Positions 1,260 through 44,696 are shown, counted from the first letter of the stretch. The stretch: DNA of 64,000 nucleotides from an uncultured delta proteobacterium (GCA_963841435.1 CAWJCS010000003.1:896001-960000), one strand, 5' to 3'. Notes: generated by a model from the letters alone, not told the origin. Translations and numbers: made by a program.

Positions 1260-2007
1260 CTAGCCCTTCAGCTGGTTGGCGACCGCTTTCGCGGCCTTCT
1301 CGGCGGCCTCCGGGTCACCGAGGTAGTAGCGCGGCTTGATGGGCTTCAGGTTCGCGTCGAGCTCGTAGACGAGCGGGATGCCGGTCGGGATGTTGAGCTC
1401 GACGATGTCGGCGTCGCTCACGCCGTCGAGGTGCTTGACGAGGGCGCGCAGGCTATTGCCGTGCGCCGCGATGACGACGCGCTCGCCCCGCTTCACGCGC
1501 GGCGCGATGTCGCTCTCCCAGAAGGGCAGGAAGCGCTCGACCGTGTCCTTCAGGCACTCCGTCTTCGGGATCTCGTTCTTGGCGAGACCCGCGTAGCGGC
1601 GGTCCTTGCCGGGCCAGTGCTCGTGCGACTCGTCGAGGGCGGGCGGCGGCACGTCGTAGGAGCGGCGCCAGAATCTTGACCTGCTCCTCACCGTGGCGCG
1701 CGACCGTCTCGGCCTTGTTGAGGCCCTGCAGCGCGCCGTACATGCGCTCGTTCACGCGCCAGGTGCGCTGCACGGGGATCCACATCAGATCGAGGTCTTC
1801 GAGCACGATCCAGAGCGTCTTGATGGCGCGCTTGAGCACGGAGGTGAAGGCGAAATCGAAGCTCAGCCCGGCCTCCTCGAGCAGCCGCGCCGCTTCGTGC
1901 GCTTCCTTCACCCCGAGCTCGCTCAGCGGGACGTCCACCCAGCCGGTGAAGCGGTTGTCGAGGTTCCACTGGCTCTGACCGTGTCGCAACAAAACGAGCT
2001 TGTGCAT
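1260..2007 (-). CDS. gpmA: 2,3-bisphosphoglycerate-dependent phosphoglycerate mutase; +1 frameshift at about 1672
   Basis: [23 protein letters not shown] and [12 protein letters not shown] in one frame; [20 protein letters not shown] and [13 protein letters not shown] in the next. Removing one base restores QVKIWRRSY. Confidence 0.95.
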
Positions 2008-2296: not shown

Positions 2297-2980
2297 CTAG
2301 CTCGAGAACGGGATGAACAGGCTCAGACCGCCCGTGGCCGTGATGTCGTTCACGATCTTGTCGACGCCGAGCTGCACGCGCTGCTGCGAGTGCACGATGT
2401 CGCGCGTGTCGAGCCGGAACGCGAGCCATTCGGTGAGGTAGAACTTGAAGCCGAAGCCGCCGGAGCCGCTCAGGCCGAGATCACCCGGCTCGACGGTCGC
2501 GCCGCCGCCGAGCGCGACGTAAAAATCGTAGCGACCGATGGCGCCGCCGAGCCAGCGGACCTTGCCGTAGGCGATCGACCAGACCAGATGCCCGAGGAAG
2601 AACTGGATGGGGTTCGAATCCGCCTGGACGATGTCGATGAGGCCCTGCTGCCGCTGCTCGATGGCCTCGAGCAGGGAGTACTTCTGACGGGCGCGGAGGT
2701 AGCTTGCCTCGAGGCCGAGATCCTCGGTGAAGTGGAAGGTGTAGGCGCCGCCGTAGGTGGGAGCGCCGTCGGAGATGTCGCCCGCGTACCAGCCGCCGAA
2801 CGCCGAGATCTCGTGGCGGAGGGCCTTCTTGATGAGGCGCGGCACGACGCCGCGGTACGCGCGCTGGCCGATGAGCTGCTGCTTGAGCGCTTCGTCGACG
2901 CACTGGGCGCGGGCCTTTGCGGGCACGAGCAGGGCGAAGGCGACGGCCAGCGCGCCGAGCCAGACACGGACCGGGGGCAT
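2297..2980 (-). CDS. Outer-membrane beta-barrel protein (myxobacterial GltA/B/H-like type)
   Basis: Signal peptide from ATG 2980; [44 protein letters not shown]-terminal GLSLFIP. Confidence 0.75.
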
Positions 2981-3203
2981 GTTCAGCGCGCCCTCGACGG
3001 GGGGCAGAACAACGCGGAAGCGGGTGCAGCGGCGCCGGCGCTCAACTCGCCATAGGGAACTATCACACCTGACACCGGCACGAAAAGCGCAGTTTTTCGC
3101 GCGGCCCCGCTGCCGTCTCGGGCACGCCTCGCTGCGCGGCCGACGGCGGCGGGGCGCGCCTCTCACGCCCCGCGCTGCGCGGTCGGCGCTAGGCTCTGGT
3201 TCC

Positions 3204-4541
3204 ATGCGGATACCGCTGTCTCTCGCGGCGCTCCTTCTGTTCGTGACGACGCGCGTCGCGGCCGAGCCGGCCCGGGGGGCGGACGCCTGCGCCGGCCCGC
3301 TCCGCTCGACGCTCACCACCGTCGGCTGCCGGCTCGCTGCCGGTCTCGGCGAGCGAGCGCAGGGCGCGCTCGTCATCGGCGTCACCCCCACGGCCGACCC
3401 ACCGGTCGCCGTGCGCGCCGAGCTCGCGAGCCGCCTCGCGCGGCTGGTCGCGGGGTCGATCGGGAGCGGCGCCACCGCCTGGCCCGCCGTGCTCGGCGCG
3501 GCGCGCGCCAGAGCGCTCTCCGACGGCCGGCGCCCGCTCGTGGTCGTCACGGCGCGCCTGGGCGACGCGCGCCTCGAGGTCACGGCCGACGCGTTCGTCG
3601 GCCGTGACACGCTGTGGCGCCGCCTGCGACGCGGGCGCTCGGGGCCCGTTTCGCACGCGTTCGCGGAGGGCCCACTCGACGCCGAGCTCAAGACGTTCTT
3701 GCCGCCCGTGCCGCTCGTCGCTCGCGAGATCATCAAGGGTCAGGGCGCCGACGCCGACCTCGTGGCGGTCGCCTGTGGCGACCTCGACGGCGACGGATCG
3801 CCCGAAATCGCAGCGCTCGGGCGTCGCCGAGTGTCCGTTTTGCGACTACGCGGGGGTCGCGTCGAAACGGCGGCGGCGAGGCCGCTCACGGCGCTCGCGC
3901 CCGTCGCCGGCACGCCGCTCCGCGAGCCGATCGCCGCGGCGTGGATCCCCGCGAAAGGAGCGCTCGACCTCGGCGTGACCGATCGAGCGGCCGCGCTGCG
4001 CCTGGACGCGAAGCTCCAGAGCGTGACGCCGCTCGCCGGGCGGCTGCCGTGGCCGGGAGGAGGCTGTGCGAACGTCGCCGAGCTCGGCGTGGCGCCGAAG
4101 CTCGAGCCGTGCCGTCCGGGAGAGGCGGCGCCGGGCGGCGAGGCCCCGGGCGCCGGAGCGGGCGATGCGCTCGCGGGCGCGCGCGTGACGCGGCGTGACG
4201 GCTCGGTCGCCGTCGTGCGTGCCGTACGGCTGCTCGGCACGAGCACGGCGAGCATCCGCGACGGCGCGCGCACGCTCACGGTCGAGCCCGTGGGAGCCGA
4301 GCTCGCCGTCGGGGACCTCGACGGCGACGGCTCGGCGGAGCTCGTCGCGAGCCTGGACACGCAAAAGCGCGAGGAGGACGCCATCGTCGTCTACGGCTTC
4401 TCCGCCGACGGTCAGGCGAGCGAGCGCTTCCGTCTACCCGTGCCGAGCGGCGTGCGCGCCGTCGGCGTGTGTCCGCTGCGCTCGAGCGCGATGGCGCCGA
4501 TCGTGGTTGCCACGGGAGATGGCCTTTGGCTCGTGCGCTGA
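3204..4541 (+). CDS. Secreted FG-GAP/VCBS-like repeat protein
   Basis: Signal peptide from ATG 3204; two GDLDGDGSxE motifs. Confidence 0.75.
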   Translation: MRIPLSLAALLLFVTTRVAAEPARGADACAGPLRSTLTTVGCRLAAGLGERAQGALVIGVTPTADPPVAVRAELASRLARLVAGSIGSGATAWPAVLGAARARALSDGRRPLVVVTARLGDARLEVTADAFVGRDTLWRRLRRGRSGPVSHAFAEGPLDAELKTFLPPVPLVAREIIKGQGADADLVAVACGDLDGDGSPEIAALGRRRVSVLRLRGGRVETAAARPLTALAPVAGTPLREPIAAAWIPAKGALDLGVTDRAAALRLDAKLQSVTPLAGRLPWPGGGCANVAELGVAPKLEPCRPGEAAPGGEAPGAGAGDALAGARVTRRDGSVAVVRAVRLLGTSTASIRDGARTLTVEPVGAELAVGDLDGDGSAELVASLDTQKREEDAIVVYGFSADGQASERFRLPVPSGVRAVGVCPLRSSAMAPIVVATGDGLWLVR

Positions 4542-5869
4542 GGCCGGGAGCGCCCGCGCGCGCAAGCCGCCGCGCCTTCGGAGCGCTCCTTCTGCTCGCG
4601 CCCGGCGCGAGCGCGCTCGGGCGGACGCCGCTCGGCGGCACGCTGCGACTGAGCGTGCCGTTTTCGACCCGCGAGCTCGATCCGCACGCGGGCGACAGCG
4701 CGATCGCGGCGTTGTTCGCGCCAGCCGTCGCCGATCCGCTGTTCGCGCTCGACGAGGAAGGGCGCCCCTACGCGGCGCTCGCCGAAGCGCTGCCCGAGCG
4801 CACCGCCGAGGGCGCGCGCCTCACGTTGCGCGCCGGGCTCGTGAGCGCACGCGGCAAGCGCCTCGACGCGCGCGACGTGGCCTTCTCGCTCGCCCGCGCC
4901 GCCCGCCTCGGCGGGGCCGCGACGCTCGGCGAGCTCCCGGCGCCGAGCCCCGATGCGCGCGACAGGCTCGCGCTCGTGTTTCCCGGCGCAGACCCGACGG
5001 CGGTCGCCGTCGCGCTCGCGAGCCCTCTCACCGCGCTCGTCCCGCGCGGCTTCTCCGCGGCTCGCCCCGACGGCACGGGCGCATTCCGGGCCACCGTGAC
5101 GGCGTCGGGACTGACGCTCGAGCGCAACGTCGTCGCGGCGCGCGGCCCGGCGTTCCTCGAACGCGTCGAGGTGACGCGCGCCGCCGGTCTCGCCGACGCG
5201 CTGCGCGCCTTCGAGTCGGCGCGGGCCGACGTGGGTTGGCTCGGAGCGGGCCTTCACCAGCCGCGGCGCGGCTCGGTGGCACTCGCCGGGCCGGACTACG
5301 GGCTGCTCGTGCTCCGCACCGGACGCGAGGCGCGCGCCTGGGCCGCGCCGGGCATCGCGCAGGGGCTCCTCGACCGCGTGCCGCCGGGCGCCCTCGCGCA
5401 CCTCGGCGTGCGAGACGTGGGCGGCACGCGACGCGCGGGCGCGCTGTGGGACGGCGGTGCCGCCGAGCTCGTCGTGGCATCCGACGAACCGATGCTCGGC
5501 GAGATTGCCGAGGCGCTCGCGGGCCTGCTCGCACCGCGCGCGGGGACGCTCGCCGCGCGCGGCGTCCCGCCGAGCGAGCTTGCCGCACGGCGAGCCACGG
5601 GCGCCTTCGCGCTCATGCTCGACTTCGTGCGCCTCGCCGGTCCGCCGGGGCGCGCAACCTTGCTCGCGCTGCTCGCCGCGACGAGCCCCGAACTCGCGCG
5701 CCGCCCGCCGCGCCCACCGTCTTACGAGCCACGCGACGTGGCACGCACTCTCCCGCTCGGCGTCGTGGGCGCCCTGCACGTCACGGGCGCGCGGGTGCCC
5801 GAGCTCGGCGGGCTCGAGCACTGGCAGCTCGGCAACGCCTATCTCACGCCGAATAGCGCACCGCCCTGA
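4538..5869 (+). CDS. ABC-transporter substrate-binding protein, family 5-like (start uncertain)
   Basis: GGTLRLSVP..LDP, DPLFALDEEGRPYAALA, LDARDVAFSL, DGTGAF; Tat-like SRRAF near the N-terminus. Confidence 0.7.
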   Translation: MRPGAPARASRRAFGALLLLAPGASALGRTPLGGTLRLSVPFSTRELDPHAGDSAIAALFAPAVADPLFALDEEGRPYAALAEALPERTAEGARLTLRAGLVSARGKRLDARDVAFSLARAARLGGAATLGELPAPSPDARDRLALVFPGADPTAVAVALASPLTALVPRGFSAARPDGTGAFRATVTASGLTLERNVVAARGPAFLERVEVTRAAGLADALRAFESARADVGWLGAGLHQPRRGSVALAGPDYGLLVLRTGREARAWAAPGIAQGLLDRVPPGALAHLGVRDVGGTRRAGALWDGGAAELVVASDEPMLGEIAEALAGLLAPRAGTLAARGVPPSELAARRATGAFALMLDFVRLAGPPGRATLLALLAATSPELARRPPRPPSYEPRDVARTLPLGVVGALHVTGARVPELGGLEHWQLGNAYLTPNSAPP

Positions 5870-5933
5870 CGTTGGCGGCGACGCGTCACGCGGCGCCGGG
5901 ACGACCGCGCTACGACCGCGGCACCGTTCGCCG

Positions 5934-6797
5934 TCAGCGGGCGGCGTCGAGCACGGCGCGGCCCGCCGCTTCGAAGTGGGCCTGTAAGACGGCGCCGGGG
6001 ACGGCCGCGTCGCGCCGCGCCGAGATGCTGCGGGCGGCGTCGAAGGCGGCGCCTTCGAGGCCGAGCGCCGTGTAGAGCGCGCCCTCGAGCTCGGCGAAGA
6101 GCGCTTCCTCGTCGGGGCCGAGCGGGCCGCACTCGGGGGCCGCCCGGCCGCGGTCGCGCGCGAGGCGGCGCCGCGCGGCCATCTTCAGCCGCATCTTGAG
6201 GACCGACAGCAGGTACACCGACGAGCCGTTCATGTCGGACGCGAGCCGGTCGCGGTCGGCGCGCCAGGCCGCGTCGAGGTCGAGCTCGGCCGCGCGCCAG
6301 GCGGGCGCCCCGGCGAGGCCCGCGAGCGCGGAGAAGTAGCCCACCTGCTCGGTGTGGTGCTCCTCGCTCGCGAACTTGTCGAGGTGACACAGGTCGTGGA
6401 TCAAGAATTCGAAGCCGTCACGCGGACCGTGCTCGACCGAGACGGGGAGCAGGCTCGCGCAGCGCGCACCGCGCGCCTGCAGCGCGAGCACGTGCGCCGC
6501 GGCGGGCACGTCGCGGCGAAGCTCGACGGAAAAGCCGCCCGACCAGCGAAACAGCGCCCGCACGGCGCGCTCGGGCACGCGGCAGAGCCGCCGTGTCGCG
6601 AGCAGCGAGAGCGCGGGCGACGGTGGCCCGCCGAGCGGCTCGCGCCGCGCGCCCTGATCAGCGCGGCGGCCGAGCGCCTGCGCGGCGCGCTCGACGAGGT
6701 ACGCGGCGGCGTGCTCGGCGTCGTTTTCGGGCGTGGAACGGCTCGGCCCGCCGGCGTCGACGCTGTCGAGCAGCGGTCGCCCCAAAAAACCAACCAT
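5934..6797 (-). CDS. Hypothetical protein with HDLCH motif
   Basis: 287-aa ORF filling the gap; FLIHDLCHLDKF, HHTEQVGYF, SDMNG. Confidence 0.6.
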   Translation of the reverse strand: MVGFLGRPLLDSVDAGGPSRSTPENDAEHAAAYLVERAAQALGRRADQGARREPLGGPPSPALSLLATRRLCRVPERAVRALFRWSGGFSVELRRDVPAAAHVLALQARGARCASLLPVSVEHGPRDGFEFLIHDLCHLDKFASEEHHTEQVGYFSALAGLAGAPAWRAAELDLDAAWRADRDRLASDMNGSSVYLLSVLKMRLKMAARRRLARDRGRAAPECGPLGPDEEALFAELEGALYTALGLEGAAFDAARSISARRDAAVPGAVLQAHFEAAGRAVLDAAR

Positions 6798-7594: not shown

Positions 7595-8326
7595 TCATTT
7601 CCCCTTGACGTTCGGCGGCACGGCGACGGTCGCCTTCGCTTTCCAGTGGTCGACACTCGCCTTGACGCGGGCAAGCTGCCTGACGGCGCGGCGATTGGCC
7701 GGACCCGTCCCGAGGCCCCAGAGCCCCACGTCGAGCTCGACGCTCTCGCCGTTGCCGAGCGGCTTCATGCCGTGCTTGCCAGGCCATTCGCGTGAAAGCT
7801 TGACGGTGGTTCCGGCGCCGAGCGGCTGGTCGCCATCGCCCTCGCGCTCGTCCCCGAAGGACTCGGCGTCGCTCTTGCCCCCGCGCTTGACCGCACCGGC
7901 GAACGCGAGCGGTCCGTTCTTCGGAGCGAGCAGCGAGCGGTCCTCGCTCGCCGTGGCCGAGACGACGACGCGCACGCCGAAGCCCGCGGGCGTCCGCACC
8001 GTCTCGGCTTTGATCATGAAGCGCACGTCGTCGACCTCGGCCTTGAGCCCCTCGGGCATGAGCACGTAACGAACGGTGCGCTGGGCGTTCGGGTCGCGCG
8101 CCGGCGGTGCGGGCTCGTCCGGCTGATCGTCGGCGGGCACCGTGTCGTCGGTCCGAGCGGGATCGGAGCCGACGCTCTCCGCGGGCTCCAAAGGGGGCGG
8201 CTCGGGCGCGACGCTCGCGGGCGCTTCGGGGGCCGCGGCCGCTGGGGTTTCGGCGGCGCCGCCGCCGCAGGCGACGAGCGCCATCGCGAGGGGAGCGAGA
8301 AGGACGAGCGGAGCAATGACCCGCAT
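7595..8326 (-). CDS. Lipoprotein
   Basis: Lipobox LVAC-GGG, Pro-rich linker, beta-rich domain. Confidence 0.75.
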   Translation of the reverse strand: MRVIAPLVLLAPLAMALVACGGGAAETPAAAAPEAPASVAPEPPPLEPAESVGSDPARTDDTVPADDQPDEPAPPARDPNAQRTVRYVLMPEGLKAEVDDVRFMIKAETVRTPAGFGVRVVVSATASEDRSLLAPKNGPLAFAGAVKRGGKSDAESFGDEREGDGDQPLGAGTTVKLSREWPGKHGMKPLGNGESVELDVGLWGLGTGPANRRAVRQLARVKASVDHWKAKATVAVPPNVKGK

Positions 8327-8487: not shown

Positions 8488-9834
8488 ATGACCGGCGGAG
8501 AGCGCGAATCCGGGACCCCGCCGAGCGGAGCCGCACCCCACGGTGCACCGCGCTTCCAGAAGATCCGCCGCATGAACCGGGGGGGCATCGGTTGCATCGA
8601 CGTAGCCAGGGACCCGGTGATCGGGCGCCGCGTCGCCATCAAGGTGTTGCGCTCGGAGCTCGAGGGCAACGATGCCGCCGCGCTCAAGTTCGCCGAGGAG
8701 GCGCAGATCACGGGTCAGCTCGAGCACCCGAACATCGTGCCCATCTACGATCTCGGGTACGACGAGCGCGGTCCGTACATCGTGATGAAGCTCATCCGCG
8801 GGCTCAGCCTCGCGGAAGCGATTGCCGACGTGCGCGGCCGCGAGCGCCCCGAGCGGCTGCAGGAGCTCGTCGAGGTCGTGCTCAAGCTGTGCGATGCGCT
8901 CGCGTTCGCCCACAGCCGCGGCGTGATTCACTGCGACGTTAAGCCCGAGAACGTGATGGTGGGGGATTTCGGCCAGGTTTACCTGATGGATTGGGGGGTG
9001 GCGCTCGTCGCCTCGGGACGCGAGGGCTCCCCGAGCCAACGCGGCACGCTGCCGCCCCCCGCTTCGCCGCAAAAGGAGCCCTGCGATGCCGCCGAGCACG
9101 ACTCGTTCGTGCACATCGACATGTCCGCCGTCTCGAGCAGCAAGGTGTGGGGCACGCCGGCCTACATGGCGCCCGAGCAAGTGTCGGCCAGGAGCGAAGC
9201 CATCGACGAGCGCACCGACGTCTTCGGCATCGGCGGCATCCTGCACGAGATCCTCACGGGCCGACCGCCCAACGACTGGCAGAAGCTGATCGGGCCGGGG
9301 CTCAACCACCCGCTCGAATCGTTGCCCGACAAGAGCGACCTCTGGCCGCGCCTGCCACCGGAGCTCTGCCGCATCGCACTTAGGGCGCTCTCGCCGAAGA
9401 GCGAGGACCGCTACCCCACGATCCCCGCGCTCAAGGCCGATCTCGAGCAGTTCTTGCGCGGCGGGGGCTGGTTCGAGACCCAGACCTTCCCGCCCGGTGC
9501 CCTCGTGATTTCCGAAGGAGCGCCCGGCGACGCCGCGTACATCATCGAGAGCGGGCACGCCGACGTGTTCAAGCACATGAACGGCGAGCGCACCTTCGTG
9601 CGCCGTCTCGGCCCGGGGGAGGTCTTCGGTGAAACGGCCGTGCTCACGGGCGGCGCGCGCACCGCGACCGTCGTCGCAGTTGACGCGCTGAGGCTCAAGG
9701 TGATCACGGGTGAGTCGCTGAACCGGGAGCTCGATCTGAACCCATGGCTCGCGGCGTTCGTGCGCTCGCTCGCGAGGCTATTTAGCGAGACGGACCAGCG
9801 TCTGTCACGACCGGAGGGGCTCGGTCGCACGTAG
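8488..9834 (+). CDS. Hanks-type Ser/Thr protein kinase with C-terminal cyclic-nucleotide-binding domain
   Basis: RGGIG, VAIK, LEHPNIVPIYD, HCDVKPEN, DWG, GTPAYMAPE; C-terminal EGAPGDAAYIIESG and FGETAVLTGGARTATV. Confidence 0.92.
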   Translation: MTGGERESGTPPSGAAPHGAPRFQKIRRMNRGGIGCIDVARDPVIGRRVAIKVLRSELEGNDAAALKFAEEAQITGQLEHPNIVPIYDLGYDERGPYIVMKLIRGLSLAEAIADVRGRERPERLQELVEVVLKLCDALAFAHSRGVIHCDVKPENVMVGDFGQVYLMDWGVALVASGREGSPSQRGTLPPPASPQKEPCDAAEHDSFVHIDMSAVSSSKVWGTPAYMAPEQVSARSEAIDERTDVFGIGGILHEILTGRPPNDWQKLIGPGLNHPLESLPDKSDLWPRLPPELCRIALRALSPKSEDRYPTIPALKADLEQFLRGGGWFETQTFPPGALVISEGAPGDAAYIIESGHADVFKHMNGERTFVRRLGPGEVFGETAVLTGGARTATVVAVDALRLKVITGESLNRELDLNPWLAAFVRSLARLFSETDQRLSRPEGLGRT

Positions 9835-9885
9835 GGGGCGGAGGTCGGTAGCGAGAGAAAAAACCAGCAGCGAGAGGGAGACGCC

Positions 9886-12800
9886 ATGACGGTCACGACA
9901 AGCAGCAAGAGCCTTCGTACGTTGACGGAGCTGACGCTCCTCGCGGACATCAAGCCGGGCTTCGTGCCCGTGCCCGACCTCATGTCTTACGCGACGCGCC
10001 TCGGCGCGCTGCTCAAGGCCCTGTTCGGGCTCAGGCGGCAGAGCATCGAGGCGGAGCCGTCCGGCTACGTGGGACCGCTCGAGCGCTTGCAATCGCTGCA
10101 CTTCGTGCGCTGGTCGATCCTCGAGGGGAAGAAGCTCTTGCTCGGCGTGAGCTTCGACCGCGCCTGGGAGCCTTACATTCGCGGCATCGTTGACGAAGCG
10201 GGGCCGTTTCTCGACGTGATCTTTTGCCATACCAAGGACTACGACGGGCACGCGACGAGCGACGGCTACGCGAAGTTCTCCCAGTGGGTGCGCGCGCATC
10301 AGGTTGACGTGCCGTTCTTCTACGCCGGCAATCCCGGCCTCACCGTCGACGACGAACGCTTTCTCGCCGAGTACGAGCGGCGCGTGCGCGCCGGCGACGA
10401 CGCGACGGACCTGGTGCTCCCCGAGCCCGGCGCCGAGGCACCGAAGCAAGAAGCCCCGGACATCGCCCAACGTCGCCTCCGGCGCGCGACGCGGGCGCTC
10501 GCGCTGATTCGCGAGTTTTTCCCGCCCGGGCGAGACCAGGACTTCTTCGACCACGCGGTGTTTTCGCTGCTCGAGGGCCTGGTCCCGCGCTCGGCCGGCG
10601 AGAGCATCGACGACGCGCTGAAGGCGCTCGCCGCCGCCGCGCCCGACATAGCCCAGCCGCTCGCAGCGATGCGCCAAAAAGTTCCCGGAGCGGCGCTGCT
10701 CGAGGACGACGAGGAGGCCGACGATCTGTCCGACGATCTCCAGGGTAACGTGCGCACGGGCTACCGTGGCATGACCCATGGCTGCCTCGCGCTCTTGCGC
10801 TGCGACGGCCGAAAGGCGGCGCGGAAGCTGCTCGCTCGCCTCGTCGCTCACGTGACGACCGACGCGTGCGCGAACGAAGCCAAGGAGGCCGTCAACGTGG
10901 CGCTGACGCGGGACGGCCTGCGCACGCTCGGCGTGAGCGAGGCCGAGCTCGCCGTCTTCCCCGCCGAGTTTCTCGAAGGCATGGAGGCGCGCGCCGGGCT
11001 GCTCGGCGACGTTGAGGCCGAGCATCCGTCGCGCTGGCAGCTGCCGAGGTTCGACGGCGATCCGGTGCCCCTGTCGAGCGTCGACGCAGTGCTCTCCGTG
11101 CAGGCGTCGCCCGCGAAGGTCGGGCCGAACGACCACGTGTTCGGCGCCGAGCATCCACTCGCGCCGCGGCTCGCCGCGCTGCTCGAGGGCCTCGAGGGGG
11201 TGAGCGTGCTGCACGTCGAGCCGCTCCTCAGGCGGCCACAACCTCCAACCGAGCCCTTCGTGCGCGAGCACTTCGGCTTCGTCGACGGCATCAGCCAACC
11301 GGTTCCCCGGGCGCGGCGCGCGGACGCACCGCCGTCCCGCGACGAGGTCGCGCTCGGCGAGGTCGTGCTCGGGTATCAGGACGATCACGGAGAGCGCCCT
11401 CCGGGAAGCGACGGCGGGCTGCTCAGGCACGGCAGCTTTCTCGTCGTGCGCAAGCTCGTGCAGGACGTGAGGGCGTTCCACGCGTTCGTGGCCACGTCCG
11501 GCATCCCCGCCGAGCGGCTCTACGGCGCGCTCATGGGACGCAAGCGCGACGGCGCGCCCCTCGTGGGACGCGGGGCGAAGGGAGACAACGATTTCGACTA
11601 CTCGGAAGCCGAGGCGAACCAGAAGTGCCCGGTCGCTTCGCACGTGCGCCGCACGAACCCGCGCACGCCCGATCGCCTGTCCGTGCACGGCCGGCCCATG
11701 CGCACGCCGCGCATCGTGCGGCGCGGCTTCTCGTTCGGCCCGATCGACCCCGAGATCGAAGCCCCCCGCGGCCTCGTGTTCATGGCCTACAACGCGAGCA
11801 TCGCGAATCAGTTCGAGGTGCTGCAGCGCTGGATCAACGGCGGCAACAGCACGGGCGACCTCAGCAGCCACTCCGACCCCGTCGTGAGCCACGCGCACCC
11901 GCGCGTCGTCACCGTGCCCCACGACGGCAAGCACGTTCGGCTCCAGAAAACGAAGCCGTTCGTCACGCTCGCGTGGGGCATGTACCTCTTTTCGCCATCG
12001 CGGAGCGCGCTCAGCGAGCTCGCCGCGCGCGACGAGACGCGCGACCGAGAGCTCGCGCGGGTCGACGAAGACGAGCTGGCCGCGCGGGGACACGAGATCA
12101 TCACCAAGCTCGAGCTCGCTCACGCCGTGCTCGGCGAAACCGCTGCGCGGGCAGAGTGGAAGCTCGTGCTCGAGGATCGCGGCGCGCGCGAGCAGGGGCG
12201 GGCCGTGTGGGCGGCGATCCGCCGGCGGGGCGGCGCGCTCCGCACTCCGTACGGCGTGCTCGTGGGGAGCGCCGACGCGGTGCTCGACGTGCTCGCCGAC
12301 GACGGGCGCTGCTCGGTGCGCGGCTACTACGAACGCATGGAGGCCTCCGTCGGGCCGCTCTACCTCGGTATGGACCGCTGCCCGGTCGCGCACGAGGGTG
12401 CGGGCTCGCAAGCCGACCAGCATTACGAGCGCGTGGTCCAGCCGGGAACCTACGACGCGTCGGCCGAGGCTCCCAATCGCTTCATGCGCGGCCTCACGCG
12501 CGAAGACGCCTTCTCGGCCACCCGGCAGGCGGCGCTGCTCACGCTCGCGGGGCTCGCGACGCTGAGCCCGCTCGTTGACCTTCGCTACTACGCCGCGGGA
12601 ACGGCGCGCCGCGTGTCGGAGGCTTGGTTCGGCCTGCCCAACGCGGATGAGCAGTTTCGGGAGATCTTCTCGGTCGCGGCGCAGAGCATTTTCGATCCCC
12701 ACCCGGAGCCCGTGGTGCTCGCCGAAGCGGAGAAGGCTCGCGAGAAGCTCCGCACCGCGGAGGAGAAGCTGCTCGAGACGAACCCGCCCATGCTCGCCGC

Positions 12801-13359
12801 CCTGCCCGGTTTCGACGACGAAGAGAAGAAGCGGGCGCTCGTCGGGGGCGCGCAGGGTTTCCTCGTGGCGACCGTCGCAAGCTTCGTGGGCGTCGCCGCC
12901 GACTGGCTCGAGAGCGGACGCGCCGCGCGGCTCTCGCAATGGCTGCGCACCGCGGCCCCCCGCGGGCTCACCGATCCGCACCAGAAGCCGTCGGCTGCCG
13001 ACCTCGAGGACTGCGTCTGGCTCGTGCGCGAGCTTTACGACGCGCTTCGGCGCCACCCGCAGCCGGACATCCTGTACAGAAAGGCCGTCGTCCCGAAGAG
13101 CGTGGCGGACGGTGCCGTGTTCGTCGCGCCGGGCGACACGCTGGTCGTCAGCCTGGCCTCGGCTGCGGCGGAGCGCCCGGAATCGATCGACATCCTGTTC
13201 GGCGGGGCCGATCCACGCCGCGCGGACGACCCGCATCCGCTCCACTACTGCCCAGGCAAGGAAGCGGCCATCGGCGTCATGCTCGCGCTCGCCGTGACGC
13301 TGCTCCAAGAGCACGAGCTCAGGCTCGAGGTGCCGCTGTCGATCTCGTTCAAGGCGTGA
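9886..13359 (+). CDS. Fusion of N-terminal DyP-associated domain, DyP-type peroxidase and cytochrome P450-like domain (1157 aa)
   Basis: DyP motifs EHFGFVDGISQP, GSFLVVRKLVQDV, CPVASHVRRTNPR, RIVRRG, GLVF..QFEVLQRW; P450-like DALRRHP and FGG..HYCPG; RBS-like GAGGGAG upstream. Confidence 0.85.
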   Translation: MTVTTSSKSLRTLTELTLLADIKPGFVPVPDLMSYATRLGALLKALFGLRRQSIEAEPSGYVGPLERLQSLHFVRWSILEGKKLLLGVSFDRAWEPYIRGIVDEAGPFLDVIFCHTKDYDGHATSDGYAKFSQWVRAHQVDVPFFYAGNPGLTVDDERFLAEYERRVRAGDDATDLVLPEPGAEAPKQEAPDIAQRRLRRATRALALIREFFPPGRDQDFFDHAVFSLLEGLVPRSAGESIDDALKALAAAAPDIAQPLAAMRQKVPGAALLEDDEEADDLSDDLQGNVRTGYRGMTHGCLALLRCDGRKAARKLLARLVAHVTTDACANEAKEAVNVALTRDGLRTLGVSEAELAVFPAEFLEGMEARAGLLGDVEAEHPSRWQLPRFDGDPVPLSSVDAVLSVQASPAKVGPNDHVFGAEHPLAPRLAALLEGLEGVSVLHVEPLLRRPQPPTEPFVREHFGFVDGISQPVPRARRADAPPSRDEVALGEVVLGYQDDHGERPPGSDGGLLRHGSFLVVRKLVQDVRAFHAFVATSGIPAERLYGALMGRKRDGAPLVGRGAKGDNDFDYSEAEANQKCPVASHVRRTNPRTPDRLSVHGRPMRTPRIVRRGFSFGPIDPEIEAPRGLVFMAYNASIANQFEVLQRWINGGNSTGDLSSHSDPVVSHAHPRVVTVPHDGKHVRLQKTKPFVTLAWGMYLFSPSRSALSELAARDETRDRELARVDEDELAARGHEIITKLELAHAVLGETAARAEWKLVLEDRGAREQGRAVWAAIRRRGGALRTPYGVLVGSADAVLDVLADDGRCSVRGYYERMEASVGPLYLGMDRCPVAHEGAGSQADQHYERVVQPGTYDASAEAPNRFMRGLTREDAFSATRQAALLTLAGLATLSPLVDLRYYAAGTARRVSEAWFGLPNADEQFREIFSVAAQSIFDPHPEPVVLAEAEKAREKLRTAEEKLLETNPPMLAALPGFDDEEKKRALVGGAQGFLVATVASFVGVAADWLESGRAARLSQWLRTAAPRGLTDPHQKPSAADLEDCVWLVRELYDALRRHPQPDILYRKAVVPKSVADGAVFVAPGDTLVVSLASAAAERPESIDILFGGADPRRADDPHPLHYCPGKEAAIGVMLALAVTLLQEHELRLEVPLSISFKA

Positions 13360-16300
13360 GGCAACGCTTGGCGCGCGCGGCGAACGCGTGCATCCCGAGC
13401 TCGCGGAACGCCTCGGGCAGCGTGCCCGCGAGGTCGCGCGCCTCCTTGGCGTCCTTTTCGCCGTGGAGCAGCTCGGCCCGCGTGAGCTGCGTCAGCAGGA
13501 GCTCTCGCCGCGACTCGTGGGAGGCCGCGACCTCTTCGGCCCGATTCGAGCTCCGATTTCGCGCGCTCGATGTCCCTTTCTCGCGCGGCAAGCCGCGCAC
13601 GCACACGGTACGCCGGCACCTCGCCCAGGCGGTCGCCCGCCTCGGCACGCTCGAGCGCCCGGCCCGCGGCCCGCGCAGCCCCCTCGTCGTCGCCCGCGGC
13701 GAAAAGCGCCTCGGCGAGGCAAGCGCACCAGAACGACAGAAACAGGCGCATCCCGCGCTCGTCGAGCCAGGACACCACGCGGCCGAGCTCACCGAGCGCC
13801 GCCGGATCGGCACCGAGCATCGCTCGCGCGAACGAGCCGAGCGCCTCGCTCGTCGCGAACACGTAGGGCCCGCTCATCCGCTCGGCGCGCAGACGGCTCA
13901 CGCTCGCGGTCTGCACGCAGTCGCCGTAACGCCCCTGCCAGACCTCTATCATACCACGGAGCCCCATCAGCGAGGCCTCGACGGCGTGCTCGGCGCCCCG
14001 CACGGCCCTGAGCGCGGTCTCCATCGTGGCAGCGCTCTCTTGAAAATCTCCCTGGTAGCCCTGCACGAGCGCCTCGACGCCGAGGGCGTACGCGAAACCC
14101 ACGGGCACGGCGCGCAAGAAGTGAGTCTTCACCTGCGTGCGCTTGAGCTCGAGGGCGCGCTCGAGCATGGCGAGAGCTTGCGTGCACTCCGCGGATGCCG
14201 CGTGCACGTGTCCTAGATTGGCGAGGAGTTGCGCCACGAGCTTGAAGCTGCCCGTGTGCTCGGCGATGGCGAGCGCGGCACGCGCGTGGGACGAGGCGGA
14301 CTTGGCATCCCCGAGCGCGTAGTGGATCCAGCTCAGCCAGTAGTGGCTGCGCGCGATCGCCTCGGGATCGTCCAGCTTGACGGCGAACTCGAGCGCCCGC
14401 TCGAGCAGCCCCACCTGCTCGGGCGCGGGGCTGAACACGCACGCCGCCGCCCATTTCCAGGCAATCTCGAGCCAGCGTCGGCGCGTGGGCGCCGACGTTG
14501 AAATGCGGTCGAGCTCGAGCATGGCGGCGCCGTATTGCTGGCGCGCGCAGTCGAGCGACGACGCCGCTGCCGCCTTGTCGCCCGCGAGCTCCGCGTACAT
14601 GCTGGCGCGCTCGGGCTCGGCGGCGCCCGCCCAATGCGCGGCGAGCGCCTCGCTCCGTTCGAGCGCGCCGCTCTCGCCGAAACAGTCTTCGATGGCGCGT
14701 GCGATGGCACCGTGCAAGCGGCGGCGCTCACCGAGCTTCACGGAATTGTACACCACCTCACGCGTGATGCCGTGCTTGAAGCGGTAGAGTCCCGAGCTAT
14801 AGCCGGCGTAAACGAGGTCGTTCTCGGCGAGCGAATCGAGCGCCTGGGCCAGACCGTCGGGGCCGACGATGCGCGAGAGCAGCCATTCCTCGAACTCGCT
14901 GCCGATCACGGCGGCCGCCTGCGAGACCAGTGAAAGCGCCGGGGGCAAGCGCTGAACGCGAGCCTGGATGAGACCGTGAATCGTGCTCGGCACGCTCTTT
15001 TCGCGACCGAGGTCGAGCTCCACGCCGTCGCGCGACAGCGCCTGGCAGAGCTCTTCCAAGAAGAGGGCATTGCCGCCCGCGCGCTCCTTCATGGCGCCCG
15101 TGGTCTCGAGATCGAGCGCCGTGGGCATGAGCGCCCGCATCATGGCGTCCACCTCGTCCGTGTCGAACGGCATCAGCTCGATGAAGCCGCTCTCGCCGGA
15201 GACCGGCGCCATCACCTTCCCGGTACGCGCGCACGTCACCACGAGCACGCGCCGGGCCTCGCGCGACAGGCCCGCCACGAGATCGGCGAGCAGCTGCCGT
15301 GAGGCGTCGTCCGCCCACTGCCAGTCGTCGAGCGTCAGAACGACGGGGCCGCGCTCGGAGAGGGCGGTGATCCATTGCACGAACGCGTTCGAGAGCGACC
15401 CGTCCTCGGACTCTTGCTTCACGGGCGCGCCGAGCGACAGCGCCTGCAACAACGCTGGCAGTTGACGCAAGAGGCGGCGATCGAGGGCAGCGAGCTCTGC
15501 TTCCACGCGGCGCGCCGACGCTTCGCGAGGCGTATCGGCCTTGAGCCCGAACGCCTGGCGGAGGATCTGCAAGAACGGTTGCAGCGGCGCGATGTTGCCG
15601 TAGCTCTCGCAGTGCCCGGCGAACGTCCGGAGCTCGGGTTGCTCGAGCCGGCGCCGAAACTCCTCGAGCAGCCGCGTTTTGCCGACGCCCGCGTCGCCGC
15701 GCACCTCGAGCACCCGGACCTTGCCCGACAGCACGGCCGCGAGCGCACCGTCGAGCGCAGCGATCTCGCGCGAGCGGCCGATGAACGTCGTGAGCCCACG
15801 CCGGGCGCGCGCCTCGAAGCGCGTCGCGACGCCCGTGCGCCCGAGCACGCGATACACGGGCACGGGCTTGCCCTTGCCCTTCAAGCGCAAAGGCTCGACG
15901 GCCCGCGTCTCGAAGAACGGCTCCACGCCGCCGAGCGCGCTCTCGCTCGCGAGGATCTCGTCGTTCCCCGCCGCCGCGCAGAGACGCGCCGCCGTGTTGA
16001 CCGGGTCGCCGACGAGCTCGTAGCGGCCCTCCGCGGGGTCGGCTTCGCGCGCGTACACGAGGCCCGCGTGGATGCCCGTGTGCAATCGCGCGATGAAGCC
16101 CGGCGGCAGATCGACGTTCGAGCTTTAGCTCGCGGATGGCGGCGTGCAGCTCGAGCGCGGCCTCCGCGGCCCTTCGCACGTCGTCCTCGCCAGGGGTCGG
16201 CAGGCCGAAGACGGCGAGGAGGCCGTCGCCGTAGAATTGATTGAGCGTGCCGCCGTGCTTCTCGATGATGCCCTTGGCGAGCGCTTTCGTGCGATGAAGC

Positions 16301-16434
16301 AGCAACGCCACGAGCTCGGGATCGCTCTCCTCGTTGAGCGCCGTGTAGTCGCAGAGATCCGAAAAAAGCAGGCCGACGTGGCACCGCCGCTCGACCGAGA
16401 CGGGCCCGTCCGACCTTTTGCCACCTCGTGTCAT
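13349..16434 (-). CDS. Class III nucleotidyl cyclase-AAA/STAND NTPase-TPR protein; +1 frameshifts at about 16117 and 13545
   Basis: LLFSDLCDYT, QFYGDG, GIHAG, GDPVNTAARL; Walker A GDAGVGKT, Walker B LTLDDWQWAD, GGNALFLEEL, YRFKH; helical repeat C-terminus. Confidence 0.88.
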
Positions 16435-16600: not shown

Positions 16601-17779
16601 TCAGGAGCGGCGAGCCGCCTCGTGCTCGATGCGGGCGGCCTCGAGCAGCCCTGGAGATTCGAGCAGGTCCGCAGCCGTCCTGGCCATGGCCTTGGCGGCG
16701 ACCAGCATCGTTTCGTAGCCGCGCGCGCTGTCGGCACACGCGGCGAAGGCGCGCTCGTGGCAAAGCGCGTGACCCTCGTCGCAAATCGCGAGCCAAGGGT
16801 GAATCGCGGGGACGGCGAGGCTCACGTCGCCCATGTCGGTGGACGCCGAGCCCACGCTGGGATCCGTTTCACGCGGCTTACGCCCCAGCACCTCGAGGGC
16901 CGCACCGAAGCGCCGCGCCATGGCCATGTTGTTGAGCATGCCGCTGTAACCGACCTCGCGCTGGACGCGCACCTCGACATCGGAGGCGAGCGCTGCCGCG
17001 CGCGCGCAGCGCTCGACGAGATCGGCGACGGGACCCACCCCTTCGGTGGTGGGCGCGCGAACCGTGAACTCGCACGCCGCGTCCTCCACGATGATGTTCG
17101 GCGCCTGGCCCCCGTTCGTGACGATGCCGTAGATCCTCACGCCGTCTCGCAGATGAACGCGCTGAGAATCCACGAGCCGGAAGGTGTCGAGGCAGGCCGT
17201 GAGAGCGCTCTTGCCGTCCCAGGGTGCGAAGGCGGCGTGCGCGGGGACGCCATGGAACGCGACCTGCACGCGCAGCGTCGCGAGAGCCGGGTGCGCGAGC
17301 ACGTCGCGGTCGAACGGGTGAAACATCATGGCCGCATCGACGCCCTCGAACACGCCCGCTTCGATGAGCCGGATCTTACCGCCGCCGCCCTCCTCGGCGG
17401 GCGTGCCCACGAGCTCGATCGCGCCGGGCAGGGAGGCCCCGTGGCGCGCGAGCGCGAGGAACGCCCCCACGGCCGCGCCGGCGATGAGATTGTGCCCGCA
17501 GGCGTGCCCGATCTCCGGCAGCGCGTCGTACTCGGCGAGGACGGCCACGCGCGGCCCCTCGGCGGCGCCCGCCCGCGCGCGAAAGGCGGTGGCGAGCCCG
17601 CCGAGACCGCGCTCGACGACGACGCCGGCCACGCCCTCCACCATCTCGGAAATCCAGGAGCTCGCCTGCCGCTCCTCGAACGAGAGCTCGGGGTGATGGT
17701 GGATCTGGCGCGAAAGCTCGGTCAGCCGTTCCCCGAGCTCGTCAACGGCGCGATCGATGGCAGCGCGATCGAGCGGCAT
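16601..17779 (-). CDS. M20 family amidohydrolase
   Basis: HPELSFEE, AEYDALPEIGHACGHN, GTPAEEGGGGK, STDMGDVS. Confidence 0.92.
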   Translation of the reverse strand: MPLDRAAIDRAVDELGERLTELSRQIHHHPELSFEERQASSWISEMVEGVAGVVVERGLGGLATAFRARAGAAEGPRVAVLAEYDALPEIGHACGHNLIAGAAVGAFLALARHGASLPGAIELVGTPAEEGGGGKIRLIEAGVFEGVDAAMMFHPFDRDVLAHPALATLRVQVAFHGVPAHAAFAPWDGKSALTACLDTFRLVDSQRVHLRDGVRIYGIVTNGGQAPNIIVEDAACEFTVRAPTTEGVGPVADLVERCARAAALASDVEVRVQREVGYSGMLNNMAMARRFGAALEVLGRKPRETDPSVGSASTDMGDVSLAVPAIHPWLAICDEGHALCHERAFAACADSARGYETMLVAAKAMARTAADLLESPGLLEAARIEHEAARRS

Positions 17780-17808
17780 GAGCCTACAATAGGGCGCTCC
17801 CCTTCCCC

Positions 17809-18972
17809 GTGCCACCCCGCCGTCGTCTTCTCGTGAGCCACGGGCTCGTGCTGCTCGTTTCGGGCGTAACCGCCGCCTGTGCGAATCCACGCGCGCCGTC
17901 CAGCACCCAGCCGGCCGCGCTCCCCACGAAGAGCTCGACCGTCGCCGTCGAAAGAGCGCCCGCCAAAGCGAAACCAGAGCCGTCGAAGCTCGCGCCGCCC
18001 GCGCCCGTGAAGATCGAGCTCAGGGAAGTCGCGATGGGGACGAGCGTGACGTTCGTGGCGTTCACCAACGAGCGTGCCGACGAGGCCGCCGTGCGCGCCG
18101 CGATGGCGAGCGCGCTCACGCGCATGCGCGGGCTCGAAGCCGTCCTCAGCGAGTGGCGCGACGACAGCGAGATCGGCCAGTTGAACCTGCACGCGGGCGA
18201 GTGGGTTCCGATGGGCCCCGAGTCGCTCGAGGTCATCCAGAAGGGCCTGTGGGCGGGGCGGCTGTCGGGCGGCGTGTTCGACATCACGTTCCAGGCGATG
18301 AAGGACGTGTGGAAGTTCGGCACCGCGAGCGAGGCCGAGCCCCACGTTCCGACGCACAAGGAGATCGAGGCGCGCCGCCGGCTCGTGGACTATCGCAAGG
18401 TCGAGATCGACGAGGGCGCGCACGCCGTTCGCATCGGCAAGCAGCAGCAAGTCGGCCTCGGCGGCATCGCCAAGGGGTACATCGTCGACAAGGCGGCGCG
18501 CGTGCTGCGCGATGCGGGCGTCGACGCGTTTCTCGTCCAGGCCGGCGGCGATCTGTACGGCGCGGGCCGCAAGCCCGACGGCTCTCCCTGGGTGAGCGGC
18601 ATCCAGGATCCGCGCGGCGCGCCCGGGCAATTCTTTGCCACGATCGAGCTCACCGATCACGCCTTTTCGACCGCCGGCGACTACGCACGCGCCTACGTCG
18701 TCAAGGGCAAGCGCTATCACCACATCATCGATCCGCGTACGGGCTATCCGGCAACGGCGTGCCGCAGCGTGACGGTCTGGGCCCCCGACGCCTTCATCGC
18801 CGACGCGGTCGACGACATCGTCTTCATCCTCGGCCCCGAAAAGGGCATCCCGCTCGTCGAGTCACTCGACGGCGTCGGAGCGGTCATCGTCGACGAAAAG
18901 AATCACGTCACGGTGACGCGCAGGCTCGAGGGCAAGGTGCACGTCGTGTCAGCGCCGACCGACGGCATCTGA
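17809..18972 (+). CDS. apbE: FAD:protein FMN transferase (lipoprotein)
   Basis: AMGT, GGVFDIT, GGIAKGYIVD, AGGD, STAGDY, YHHIIDPRTGYP. Confidence 0.93.
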   Translation: MPPRRRLLVSHGLVLLVSGVTAACANPRAPSSTQPAALPTKSSTVAVERAPAKAKPEPSKLAPPAPVKIELREVAMGTSVTFVAFTNERADEAAVRAAMASALTRMRGLEAVLSEWRDDSEIGQLNLHAGEWVPMGPESLEVIQKGLWAGRLSGGVFDITFQAMKDVWKFGTASEAEPHVPTHKEIEARRRLVDYRKVEIDEGAHAVRIGKQQQVGLGGIAKGYIVDKAARVLRDAGVDAFLVQAGGDLYGAGRKPDGSPWVSGIQDPRGAPGQFFATIELTDHAFSTAGDYARAYVVKGKRYHHIIDPRTGYPATACRSVTVWAPDAFIADAVDDIVFILGPEKGIPLVESLDGVGAVIVDEKNHVTVTRRLEGKVHVVSAPTDGI

Positions 18973-43772: not shown

Positions 43773-44696
43773 CCGGGCGGCGGAGGTGAGCTCGGATGGA
43801 GCGGCGCCCACACGTCGTCGAGCGCGCCGTCACAGAAAAGCAGCCAGCTCTGGTCCGGCAGCCCGACGCGGGCGGCGACCTCCCGAAGCACGCCGAGCGC
43901 GCGCTCGACCCCGTCGAGCGCCAGGTCCACGTACGAGTAGCGCACACCGACACCGCCTCCCACGACGCGCCCGCAGCGCTCCGACACGAGCGCCGCGTCG
44001 AGCGCGTCCTCGAGCACGCGGCGTGCCGACAGCGCGAGCCGCGGCTCGAGCTCCTTGCTCTTGACCTTGAGATAGCAGAAGAGCTCGCCGTGCCTGGAGA
44101 ACCGGCGCGACGCGAACGGCGCTCCACTCAGAAAGCACTTGAGCATCTCCGGCATGAACGTCGAGCAGAGCGCCACGTCGGTCTGAGCCGGGTAGTCGCG
44201 GGCGGGCTCGACGTTCGAGCTCGAGCAACGTCCAGCGCTGCTCGCCACCGAGCGCCCAGAGCGGACACGCCGGCAGGCCCTCGTAGAGACCCGAAACGGC
44301 GCGCGCGCACGTAGCGGGCAGCTCGGCGACGGGCCAGAACCTCGGGGCCCCCGCTTCCGCTTGCAGCACCGCGAGCGCGCCGCCGCGCGGAGCGGGCTGC
44401 ACGGCGAGCTCACCGACGAAGTCGTTGACGAAGGCGTCTCCAGCGAGCCCGCGCACGAGCTCGGCGGCGGCGGCGTGCTCGGTGTCGGTGCCGCGCCCGC
44501 CGGGTAGCTCGATGAGCACGTCGAGCAGGTGCCCCCGCGCGAACCCGGTGCGGGCGCGGGCGCGCGAAAGATCGATGCCGGTCCGTTCCTGCGTGCGCCC
44601 GACGGCCGCGTCGAAGTCGACCGCAGCACGCCCGCGCTCCGGCGACAGACGCAAAAGGAGGTCTCGCTCGGGGGGCAGAGCGCTCGGCGTCGGCAT
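43760..44696 (-). CDS. Hypothetical protein; +1 frameshift at about 44214
   Basis: Two overlapping ORFs join as WTLLELDVEPARDY; C-terminal LEDALDAAL..GGGVGVRYSYVDL. Confidence 0.65.

Follow-up and report, generated by a model that had tools for sequence, protein, structure and literature searches.

A candidate cyclic-nucleotide signalling cassette around a DyP and P450-fold two-haem enzyme in an uncultured delta proteobacterium

INTRODUCTION

Local circuits that place a dedicated cyclase and a receptor of the Crp family beside the gene they regulate are known from Sinorhizobium meliloti (CyaD1/CyaD2/CyaK-Clr-smc02178) and Rhodospirillum centenum (cGMP-CgrA). Here we describe a locus in 64,000 nucleotides of DNA from an uncultured delta proteobacterium (GCA_963841435.1, CAWJCS010000003.1:896001-960000; this whole stretch is called the window below). 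Three genes lie together in it: one for a protein kinase with a domain that binds cyclic nucleoside monophosphates (cNMPs), one for an enzyme in which a DyP-type peroxidase is fused to a domain of cytochrome P450 fold, and one for a sensor cyclase that carries an ATPase and TPR repeats. We consider it rather probable that these genes work together as a cassette for local cyclic-nucleotide signalling, with the two-haem oxidative enzyme at its centre. Relatives of the locus that bear a Crp-type regulator resemble the S. meliloti and R. centenum circuits, which have other cyclase sensor domains and unrelated targets; the window has a kinase in the place of Crp.

The order of domains in the sensor cyclase is like that of mammalian soluble adenylyl cyclase, in which a cyclase is combined with a P-loop NTPase and TPR repeats. 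The kinase recalls PKA and PKG, where a cNMP-binding domain controls a Hanks-type kinase, and as in PKG both parts lie on one polypeptide. In the window such control is predicted from sequence; the cyclic-nucleotide-binding (CNB) domain is single and C-terminal, and the likeness is one of common domains only. By description, the mycobacterial class IIIc adenylyl cyclases Rv0386, Rv1358 and Rv2488c are built in a like order, the cyclase being followed by a P-loop ATPase (AAA_16) and then by TPR repeats. A preprint presents the Rv0386 group as a cyclase with a MalT-like ATPase, TPR repeats and a LuxR helix-turn-helix (HTH) domain, and gives Rv0386 a Gln-Asn pair and a guanylyl side activity, in wording that mixes Rv0386 with Rv2488c (bioRxiv 10.1101/2024.03.06.583649). 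On that account both types have a non-canonical substrate-specifying pair, Gln-Asn there and Gln/Arg...Glu here. The Rv0386 type has the LuxR HTH, whereas the cyclase in the window lacks it and is tied to a convergent enzyme gene.

Fungal enzymes of the Ppo, linoleate diol synthase or DOX-CYP kind join a peroxidase-type domain to a C-terminal P450 and act on fatty acids with no redox partner, according to one paper (PMC13049297). The enzyme described here is likewise a fusion of a peroxidase-type and a P450 haem domain. The enzymes are analogous, and their first haem domains differ: that of DOX-CYP has the animal peroxidase/cyclooxygenase fold, while that of our enzyme has the unrelated DyP fold. 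The fungal enzymes also have neither an extra N-terminal domain nor a cyclase partner, and the P450 domain in the window is far more divergent. Pycsar systems, too, encode a class III-like cyclase together with a cNMP-binding partner, and PADLOC reports weak similarity to them; their effector is a TIR or transmembrane (TM) protein, of which none was matched here, whereas the cyclase of our locus carries an ATPase and TPR region and its usual partner is a transcription factor. A literature search in sources outside the subscription journals returned no description of the DyP-P450 fusion or of its cyclase/Crp neighbourhood, and bacterial CNB-Hanks kinases of this kind received no specific mention there. 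The cassette itself appears to be unpublished; its parts and its signalling logic are of known kinds.

RESULTS AND DISCUSSION

The sensor cyclase and the two-haem enzyme recur as a pair

In the window the kinase gene lies 51 bp upstream of the fusion gene on the same strand, the two open reading frames (ORFs) ending at 9834 and starting at 9886. The cyclase gene converges on the fusion gene from the other side; it runs from an ATG at 16434 to a stop codon at 13349-13351, and since the fusion gene ends at 13359 the 3' ends overlap by 11 bp (Table 1). This arrangement, with unrelated genes for flanks (a lipobox-bearing ORF and an M20 peptidase gene), agrees with an earlier reading of the same DNA from the sequence alone (the sequence-only reading), which had proposed the three genes as one signalling module.

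Homologous loci were collected in a scan of 185,579 species genomes, with one genome per species. This gave 99 stretches with relatives, of which 80 loci were kept, and an independent scan of metagenome contigs gave 62 loci. The 80 loci come from Polyangiales, Burkholderiales, Sphingomonadales, Bradyrhizobium, Sneathiellales, Acidobacteriota and the metagenome-assembled genome of one actinomycete, and culturable carriers of the Crp form among them include Variovorax, Xenophilus, Bradyrhizobium and Sphingomonas strains. The family as a whole occurs in about 99 of the 185,579 species genomes, spread over myxobacteria, alpha-, beta- and gamma-proteobacteria, Acidobacteriota and one actinomycete. 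A homologue of the ATPase-TPR part of the cyclase was found by tblastn beside the fusion gene in 73 of the 80 genome loci, and the two cyclase pieces in 71. In six of the seven loci where it was missed the contig ends in or just past the fusion gene, and only one (L011) has downstream DNA without a cyclase. The two genes are convergent in 69 pairs, with 3' ends that overlap in 38 and lie 0-50 nt apart in 21. The cyclase gene accompanies the fusion gene in 47 of the 62 metagenome loci. Where it was missed (15 loci), the contig stops within 1.5 kb downstream in 12 cases, which leaves three misses not accounted for. The M20 gene flanks the pair in one of the 80 genome loci and the lipoprotein gene in none. 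It must be set against these figures that related loci are non-independent samples in all locus counts. The linkage is strong, and it argues that the sensor cyclase and the fusion enzyme act as a functional unit. The recurrence that the sequence-only reading had anticipated for homologues of the fusion was thus found, with a near-obligate cyclase and, as described below, an enrichment of cNMP receptors.

Other genes accompany the pair in particular lineages. In a cluster of 12 loci the gene immediately upstream of the fusion encodes a patatin-like phospholipase. GDSL-like sequences occur as an ORF behind the fusion gene or as part of the fusion itself, and LuxR/GerE regulator genes recur near the cassette in some loci. 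Within the genus, the pair is present in 4 of 18 genomes (strong matches). At one of these loci (L092, G015:C95) a gene for an AMP-binding, acyl-activating enzyme (4545-6356, + strand) ends 15 bp before the fusion gene. The same locus encodes a stand-alone cNMP-binding protein of 147 aa (13327-13770, + strand), divergent from the cyclase gene and 52% identical to the CNB domain of the window kinase, and has Crp and LuxR regulators further upstream.

The enzyme combines a DyP domain with a divergent P450-fold domain

The fusion gene is present in a single copy in the genome. Full-length homologues number about 120 (at least 120 proteins) of about 1150-1600 residues; they share the three-part architecture, and some carry an extra patatin (PF01734) or GDSL (PF13472) domain.

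The central DyP domain (residues 282-712) is complete. Its best PDB match is 8re3 (E 5.9e-34), one of 20 DyP chains matched with E values from 5.9e-34 to 8e-13. It scored 31.7 bits with PF20628 (cut-off 20) and 96.1 bits with TIGR01413, just below the cut-off of 100.5. The residues that we take to be the distal Asp (Asp467, in the GXXDG motif), the proximal haem ligand His586 and the distal Arg612 are kept in 70, 73 and 73 of 73 homologues, respectively. The genome also encodes a stand-alone DyP paralogue (L082, G000:C6:1399301-1400671), 39% identical to residues 283-714 of the fusion.

The sequence-only reading had called the enzyme a DyP-P450 fusion. The first part of this label stands as a complete domain, and the second at the level of profile and fold, not as membership of the Pfam family. 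Two results weigh against a P450 assignment: residues 715-1157 gave no Pfam match even at E <= 10, PF00067 included, and the ExxR motif of the K-helix is not conserved, with R/Q/E ... Q/L/R at these positions in 73 homologues when the register is taken from a weak CYP97 match. That match (E 0.33) came from a single-sequence search of the PDB. With a profile of 72 C-terminal sequences (alignment A1), only P450s were found among the 60 PDB matches listed, the best with E 1.8e-4, and the H-x-C-P-G loop aligned with the Cys-ligand loop of P450s, which is HxCxG in CYP51 and CftA. The Cys in this loop (Cys1122) is kept in 72 of 73 homologues and is invariant in A1. Both haem sites of the enzyme are conserved in sequence. 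An AlphaFold (AF2) model of the domain had a mean predicted local distance difference test score (pLDDT) of 91.3, and the Foldseek matches listed for it in the PDB were all P450s (CYP184A1, CYP102, CYP97 and CYP51; best E 5.5e-9, template modelling (TM) scores 0.54-0.62). We assign the P450 fold because of the A1 profile, the AF2 model and the Foldseek matches; judged by the predicted structure, the C-terminal domain is a P450 in its fold and its haem-thiolate site yet lies outside the family as Pfam defines it.

The N-terminal domain (residues 1-280) had no match in Pfam and no sequence relative in the PDB by profile search. Its AF2 model (pLDDT 86.7) gave nothing in Foldseek at E <= 0.001. 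With VIA-align the best Z was 7.2, and ABM-like chains (rhamnose mutarotases, SnoaB and TcmI) aligned to residues 10-147 with Z ~5; for the first 150 residues, Z values with alpha+beta barrels of ABM type were 5-7. This lends weak support to an ABM-like domain. In the ESM Atlas, residues 1-175 matched only unnamed hypothetical proteins of 145-167 aa. Variants of the architecture were also seen. One protein of 1620 aa (P0122) has a DyP domain and a canonical PF00067 P450 and covers 37% of the fusion query. Two fusion homologues in one genome (L095, G020:C243, 715-7403; L096, G020:C473, 7478-14145) match the N-domain and DyP domain only, to about residue 830, with no P450 match, and they still adjoin a gene for a cyclase-ATPase-TPR protein, 33% identical.

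P450s that use peroxides or hydroperoxides need no redox partner. No ferredoxin or reductase gene adjoins the fusion gene in the 64-kb window, which suits a P450 of this type. The patatin and GDSL lipases that accompany the enzyme elsewhere suggest that its substrate is probably lipid-derived, a proposal against which it counts that the window has no patatin or GDSL lipase gene.

The sensor cyclase retains its catalytic residues

The sequence-only reading had described a single gene for a cyclase, an NTPase and TPR repeats. The three domains were all found by Pfam; the single open frame was not, since in this assembly the gene is read in three frames, and one surplus base accounts for each junction (at 16116 and 13541). 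The first 106 codons (16434-16117) encode the beginning of the catalytic domain (Guanylate_cyc, PF00211, positions 3-96) in the first frame. The following 858 codons (16115-13542), in the second frame, encode its remainder (Guanylate_cyc positions 103-176), the AAA_16 domain and the TPR repeats, and the final 63 codons (13540-13352) lie in the third. The AAA_16 domain (PF13191) was matched with E 1e-27, and its Walker A (GDAGVGKT) and Walker B (DD) motifs can be read in the translation. The TPR region matched TPR_12 (E 2.5e-10); an alignment of 70 sequences of this region (A3) had a mean column identity of 48%. A C-terminal HTH of the LuxR type (GerE) was not matched in any of the three frame pieces. 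An intact homologue of 1027 aa, encoded by a metagenome contig (L097) and 66% identical to the window cyclase, matches class III cyclases in the PDB (2w01, E 1.3e-17). A complex prediction that paired the TPR region (A3) with the N-domain of the fusion (alignment A2) gave a score of 0.00, the mark being 0.32.

The pair of metal-binding Asp residues (in FSD and GDG) and the transition-state Asn and Arg (in VNTAAR) are intact in the window cyclase, and these motifs are conserved at 0.8-0.9 or more across 71 homologues. The residues that specify the substrate count against the cassette as proposed. In canonical class III cyclases the pair is Lys/Asp for ATP and Glu/Cys for GTP. At the positions that we take to be equivalent, located by motifs, the window cyclase has Gln...Glu and the family Arg/Gln...Glu, and the pair of the window cyclase fits neither the adenylyl (Lys...Asp) nor the guanylyl (Glu...Cys) pattern.

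A kinase occupies the place of a Crp-type receptor

The usual third gene of homologous loci encodes a Crp/Fnr-type regulator and lies upstream of the cyclase gene or of the fusion gene. We searched for receptors by ORF clustering and a local iterative search. This gave 42 ORFs with a cNMP domain in 39 of the 80 genome loci, of which 40 lie within 1.5 kb of the pair; their density is 0.185 per kb in the 217 kb within that distance versus 0.0026 per kb in the 774 kb further out. A cNMP-binding protein is encoded within 1.5 kb of the pair in 38 of the 80 genome loci and 16 of the 62 metagenome loci. When 67 candidate ORFs were scanned with Pfam, 38 matched cNMP_binding, 36 of these together with HTH_Crp_2, and the rest were mostly antisense ORFs of no family. 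We also searched the 320 nt before the fusion gene for CRP-like sites, with TGTGA-N6-TCACA as the consensus and up to two mismatches allowed. Such a site was present in 20 of 37 receptor-bearing loci compared with 5 of 39 others, while an equal-sized control inside the gene gave 0 of 37 and 1 of 39. This supports transcriptional control of the enzyme gene as the probable mode of action of the Crp form. The flanks of the window contain no Crp gene, and matches to the CRP consensus in the window numbered 5 versus 7.3 expected by chance; the intergenic stretches before the kinase and cyclase genes had none.

In the window the third gene encodes the kinase. Its start at ATG 8488 is supported by a homologue of 446 aa at L097, and both of its domains matched Pfam models (Pkinase, PF00069, E 1.6e-32; cNMP_binding, PF00027, E 2.9e-19, above its cut-off). 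The kinase motifs VAIK, HCDVKPEN, DWG and APE can be read in the translation, with Asn in place of the first Gly of the glycine-rich loop, and the cNMP domain has a phosphate-binding cassette (FGE...ARTA) with its Arg. The same gene order recurs in L097, where the kinase-cNMP protein is 74%/71%, the fusion 56% and the convergent cyclase 66% identical to those of the window, and which shares the lipoprotein and M20 flanks with the window. In a second metagenome contig (L101) a kinase-cNMP gene (60%/70% identity) lies directly upstream of a fusion gene whose product is 46% identical, after which the contig ends. L097 has in addition two ORFs between the cyclase and M20 genes (13638-15025, - strand), by eye anti-sigma- and ECF sigma-like, which are absent from the window. 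The sequence-only reading had counted the kinase as a member of the module. Its recurrence in L097 and L101 agrees with that, whereas most lineages use a Crp-type transcription factor. We read the locus as a receptor swap in one sub-lineage, in which a kinase of a locally common type would stand in the place of Crp. The kinase in this position is the feature specific to the copy in the window.

A DyP gene next to a kinase-cNMP gene was also seen apart from the fusion. At L163 (G050:C52, - strand) a DyP match at 2840-4225, covering fusion residues 284-706 only, lies directly upstream of a kinase-cNMP match at 1489-2754, a hint that kinase-cNMP proteins may have DyP partners other than the fusion.

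Proposed mechanism and significance

The flow of the signal that we infer would start at the STAND-like ATPase and TPR region, which would sense a cue and switch on the N-terminal class III cyclase. The cyclic nucleotide made by the cyclase would be bound by the CNB domain of the kinase in the window and by Crp elsewhere. The kinase gene is probably co-transcribed with the enzyme gene, and the kinase would phosphorylate a target, possibly the enzyme itself or a regulator. The output on the two-haem enzyme would then be post-translational here and transcriptional in the Crp lineages, where Crp would bind upstream of the enzyme gene. The enzyme, with a predicted His-ligated DyP haem and a predicted Cys-ligated haem in the P450 fold, would most likely oxidize or rearrange a lipid-derived substrate. 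Candidates are fatty acids or hydroperoxides that the accompanying patatin and GDSL lipases of other lineages may release.

A bolder version would make the whole circuit a bacterial counterpart of the axis from soluble cyclase to cNMP-dependent kinase. The STAND sensor cyclase would respond to a lipid-derived cue, which may be lipid peroxides or what the enzyme itself produces, and a possibly non-canonical cNMP would directly gate the Hanks kinase. The kinase would in turn switch a self-sufficient DyP and P450 enzyme of oxylipin type by phosphorylation, and in the relatives that bear Crp the same switch would act through transcription. As a description of the entire circuit we hold this to be doubtful.

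The enzyme family is uncharacterized, and its own sensor cyclase offers a handle on what the enzyme does and when. Protein kinases gated by cNMPs are established in eukaryotes and, to our knowledge, hardly at all in bacteria; the exchange of Crp for a kinase at a fixed pair provides a defined setting in which to test them. Which nucleotide the cyclase makes is a further question, posed by its unusual specificity residues.

Alternative explanations and the frame breaks in the cyclase gene

The kinase could instead be a chance or recent neighbour that reads the cNMP of other cyclases, so that only the cyclase and the enzyme form a unit. Several counts speak for this and against a place for the kinase in the cassette. 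Only one of the 80 genome loci gave a kinase-domain match, and it lies at a distance from the pair; among the 62 metagenome loci, two have a kinase domain beside the fusion. Full-length kinase-cNMP homologues occur in about 19 of 60 family genomes, and in none of five inspected loci do they adjoin the fusion; being common in the family away from the fusion, such a kinase could be a recent and loosely attached neighbour. Three carriers of the pair in the same genus (G003, G004 and G015) have Crp and LuxR regulators and no kinase. Against this, the order of kinase-cNMP and fusion genes recurs in L097 and L101 at 46-56% identity of the fusion, the gap in the window is short and on the same strand, and the kinase sits in the slot that belongs to Crp elsewhere (for example in L012, L067, L071 and L075). 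A kinase-cNMP gene also adjoins the stand-alone DyP gene at L163. Direct adjacency by chance is unlikely, given 13 cNMP_binding matches in the 7.78-Mb genome, and we consider this alternative quite improbable. A further one is that the locus serves for anti-phage defence or stress suicide in the manner of Pycsar or CBASS, in which case the STAND sensor cyclase would detect infection and the cNMP would activate cell-damaging effectors, namely the kinase, the two-haem enzyme and the patatin lipase. STAND ATPase and TPR sensors, like patatin effectors (CapV), are known from defence systems. PADLOC showed a resemblance of the cyclase domain to PycC models (the L001 homologue scored E 9e-13) and of the cNMP domains to Pycsar effector domains, and the distribution of the pair is patchy, both within the genus and over several phyla. 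However, the matches in PADLOC were limited to generic kinase and cyclase models, with none for the fusion or the ATPase-TPR region; it reported no specific system, and among the six proteins scanned none matched a TIR or TM effector model. The neighbours in the window are housekeeping or unrelated genes, and the usual receptor argues for gene regulation, being a Crp-type factor with CRP-like sites ahead of the fusion gene. Defence thus appears very improbable. Of the two roles, lipid signal or stress/defence, that had been suggested from the sequence, the former fits the patatin and GDSL partners, and the latter found only the generic PADLOC matches.

A different objection accepts the cassette as real and holds that this copy is decaying, with the cyclase a pseudogene that has two genuine frameshifts; the kinase and enzyme would then act without local cNMP input, or not at all. 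A period-3 G+C model of the whole 64-kb window gave three further frame breaks away from gene ends, in other genes, which with the two in the cyclase gene makes five (Table 1). The decay of the cyclase would explain why two breaks fall in one gene of 3.1 kb, versus a window average of about one per 13 kb, and none in the adjoining 3.5-kb fusion gene or in the kinase gene, and the patchiness of the pair within the genus indicates that loss does occur. Both breaks are, however, single extra bases in contexts of a kind shared with gpmA and two other genes of the window: the five breaks show two kinds of context, GATTCTG (gpmA and the methyltransferase gene) and GCTCGAA (the other three), with the insertion point at GAT^TC or TCGA^A in all five, and the 13-mer GCTCGAACGTCGA is identical at the 16116 and ~44212 breaks. 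On either side of the cyclase breaks the proper frame contains no stop codon, and the sequence there remains conserved. The single ORF of L097 reads KLDLELPPGF across the first break site and CLDRAEDVAQSH across the second (13541), in both cases in register with the flanking peptides of the window.

The same words are associated with phase shifts across the genome. A genome-wide test of phase changes at 5-mers was swamped by true gene ends, and the asymmetry between +1 and +2 shifts was used instead, under strict thresholds that leave most sites not assessable. Counted by position, which makes the events non-independent, there were 16816 shifts of +1 versus 12750 of +2. The 6-mers with the strongest excess of +1 are sub-words of the 13-mer (AACGTC 33:4, GCTCGA 84:34, GAACGT 33:6 and TCGAAC 39:12). 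GATTCTG had a +1 shift at 8 of 52 assessable sites versus 8 of 714 for GATCTG, and CTCGAACG at 10 of 193 versus 36 of 1892 for CTCGACG. One-base errors at particular motifs are typical of long-read base-calling. That the housekeeping gene gpmA is broken within a conserved motif and that the contexts recur indicate systematic one-base insertions in the long-read assembly. Along with the crowding of breaks in the cyclase gene, two observations limit the case for an error: for TCGAACGTCGA only 5 of 20 occurrences were assessable and the 2 that were shifted are possibly the window's own two, and the contigs of the one public run found, from a soil metagenome (X1, share 0.05), span 14889-14923, 15375-15571 and 15676-15714 and cover neither break site. 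Among 30 relatives there was no close reference for the break sites, the best being 46% identical. Taking these points together, we judge the two breaks most likely to be assembly errors, and a decaying cyclase gene rather unlikely. On the reading of the breaks as errors, the assembly appears to carry context-specific one-base insertions, and apparent pseudogenes in this genome need care.

Other features of the window

The coordinates of the features are collected in Table 1. The stretch has a G+C content of ~70%, and the genome consists of 7.78 Mb in 6 contigs. Besides the two flanking genes listed, the neighbourhood contains hypothetical lipoprotein-like ORFs, ApbE and others.

Table 1. Coordinates of the three genes, their domains, the flanking genes and the frame breaks in the window
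Feature	Position	Strand	Basis
Ser/Thr kinase (Hanks type) with C-terminal cNMP-binding domain, 448 aa	8488..9834	+	Pfam, motifs, L097 homologue
Two-haem enzyme (N-domain, DyP, P450-fold), 1157 aa, one ORF	9886..13359	+	ORF call, homologues
Fusion N-domain, residues 1-280 (possible ferredoxin-like/ABM-type alpha+beta part at about residues 10-147, then helices)	9886..10725	+	Predicted model; no known family
DyP-type peroxidase domain, residues 282-712	10729..12021	+	PDB, Pfam, residues
Highly divergent P450-fold domain (predicted), residues 715-1157, with H-x-C-P-G Cys loop	12028..13356	+	Profile and fold
Sensor cyclase: class III cyclase, AAA_16 (STAND-like) ATPase and TPR	13349..16434	-	Pfam; three frames
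Cyclase catalytic domain	15840..16434	-	Catalytic residues; PDB matches of the L097 homologue
TPR-rich C-terminal sensor region, 369 aa of the second frame (frame B)	13541..14648	-	TPR_12/TPR_2 matches
First frame break, one surplus base, within the cyclase domain	16116	-	Flanking peptides; context GCTCGAACGTCGA
Second frame break, one surplus base, close to the 3' end	13541	-	Flanking peptides; context GCTCGAATCGG
Lipobox-bearing ORF without Pfam match (flank)	7595-8326		
M20 peptidase (flank)	16601-17890		
Frame break in phosphoglycerate mutase gene gpmA, between EEQVKI and (W)RRSYDVPPP	1641-1689	-	Context GATTCTG
Frame break in S-adenosylmethionine (SAM)-dependent methyltransferase gene, between DLVIL and the DPPK motif	26023-26068	+	Context GATTCTG
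Frame break in hypothetical gene, at ~44212	44183-44237	-	Context GCTCGAACGTCGA

One of the contigs of run X1, of 197 nt, is identical to window positions 15375-15571, which indicates that the organism or a very close relative was present in that soil sample.

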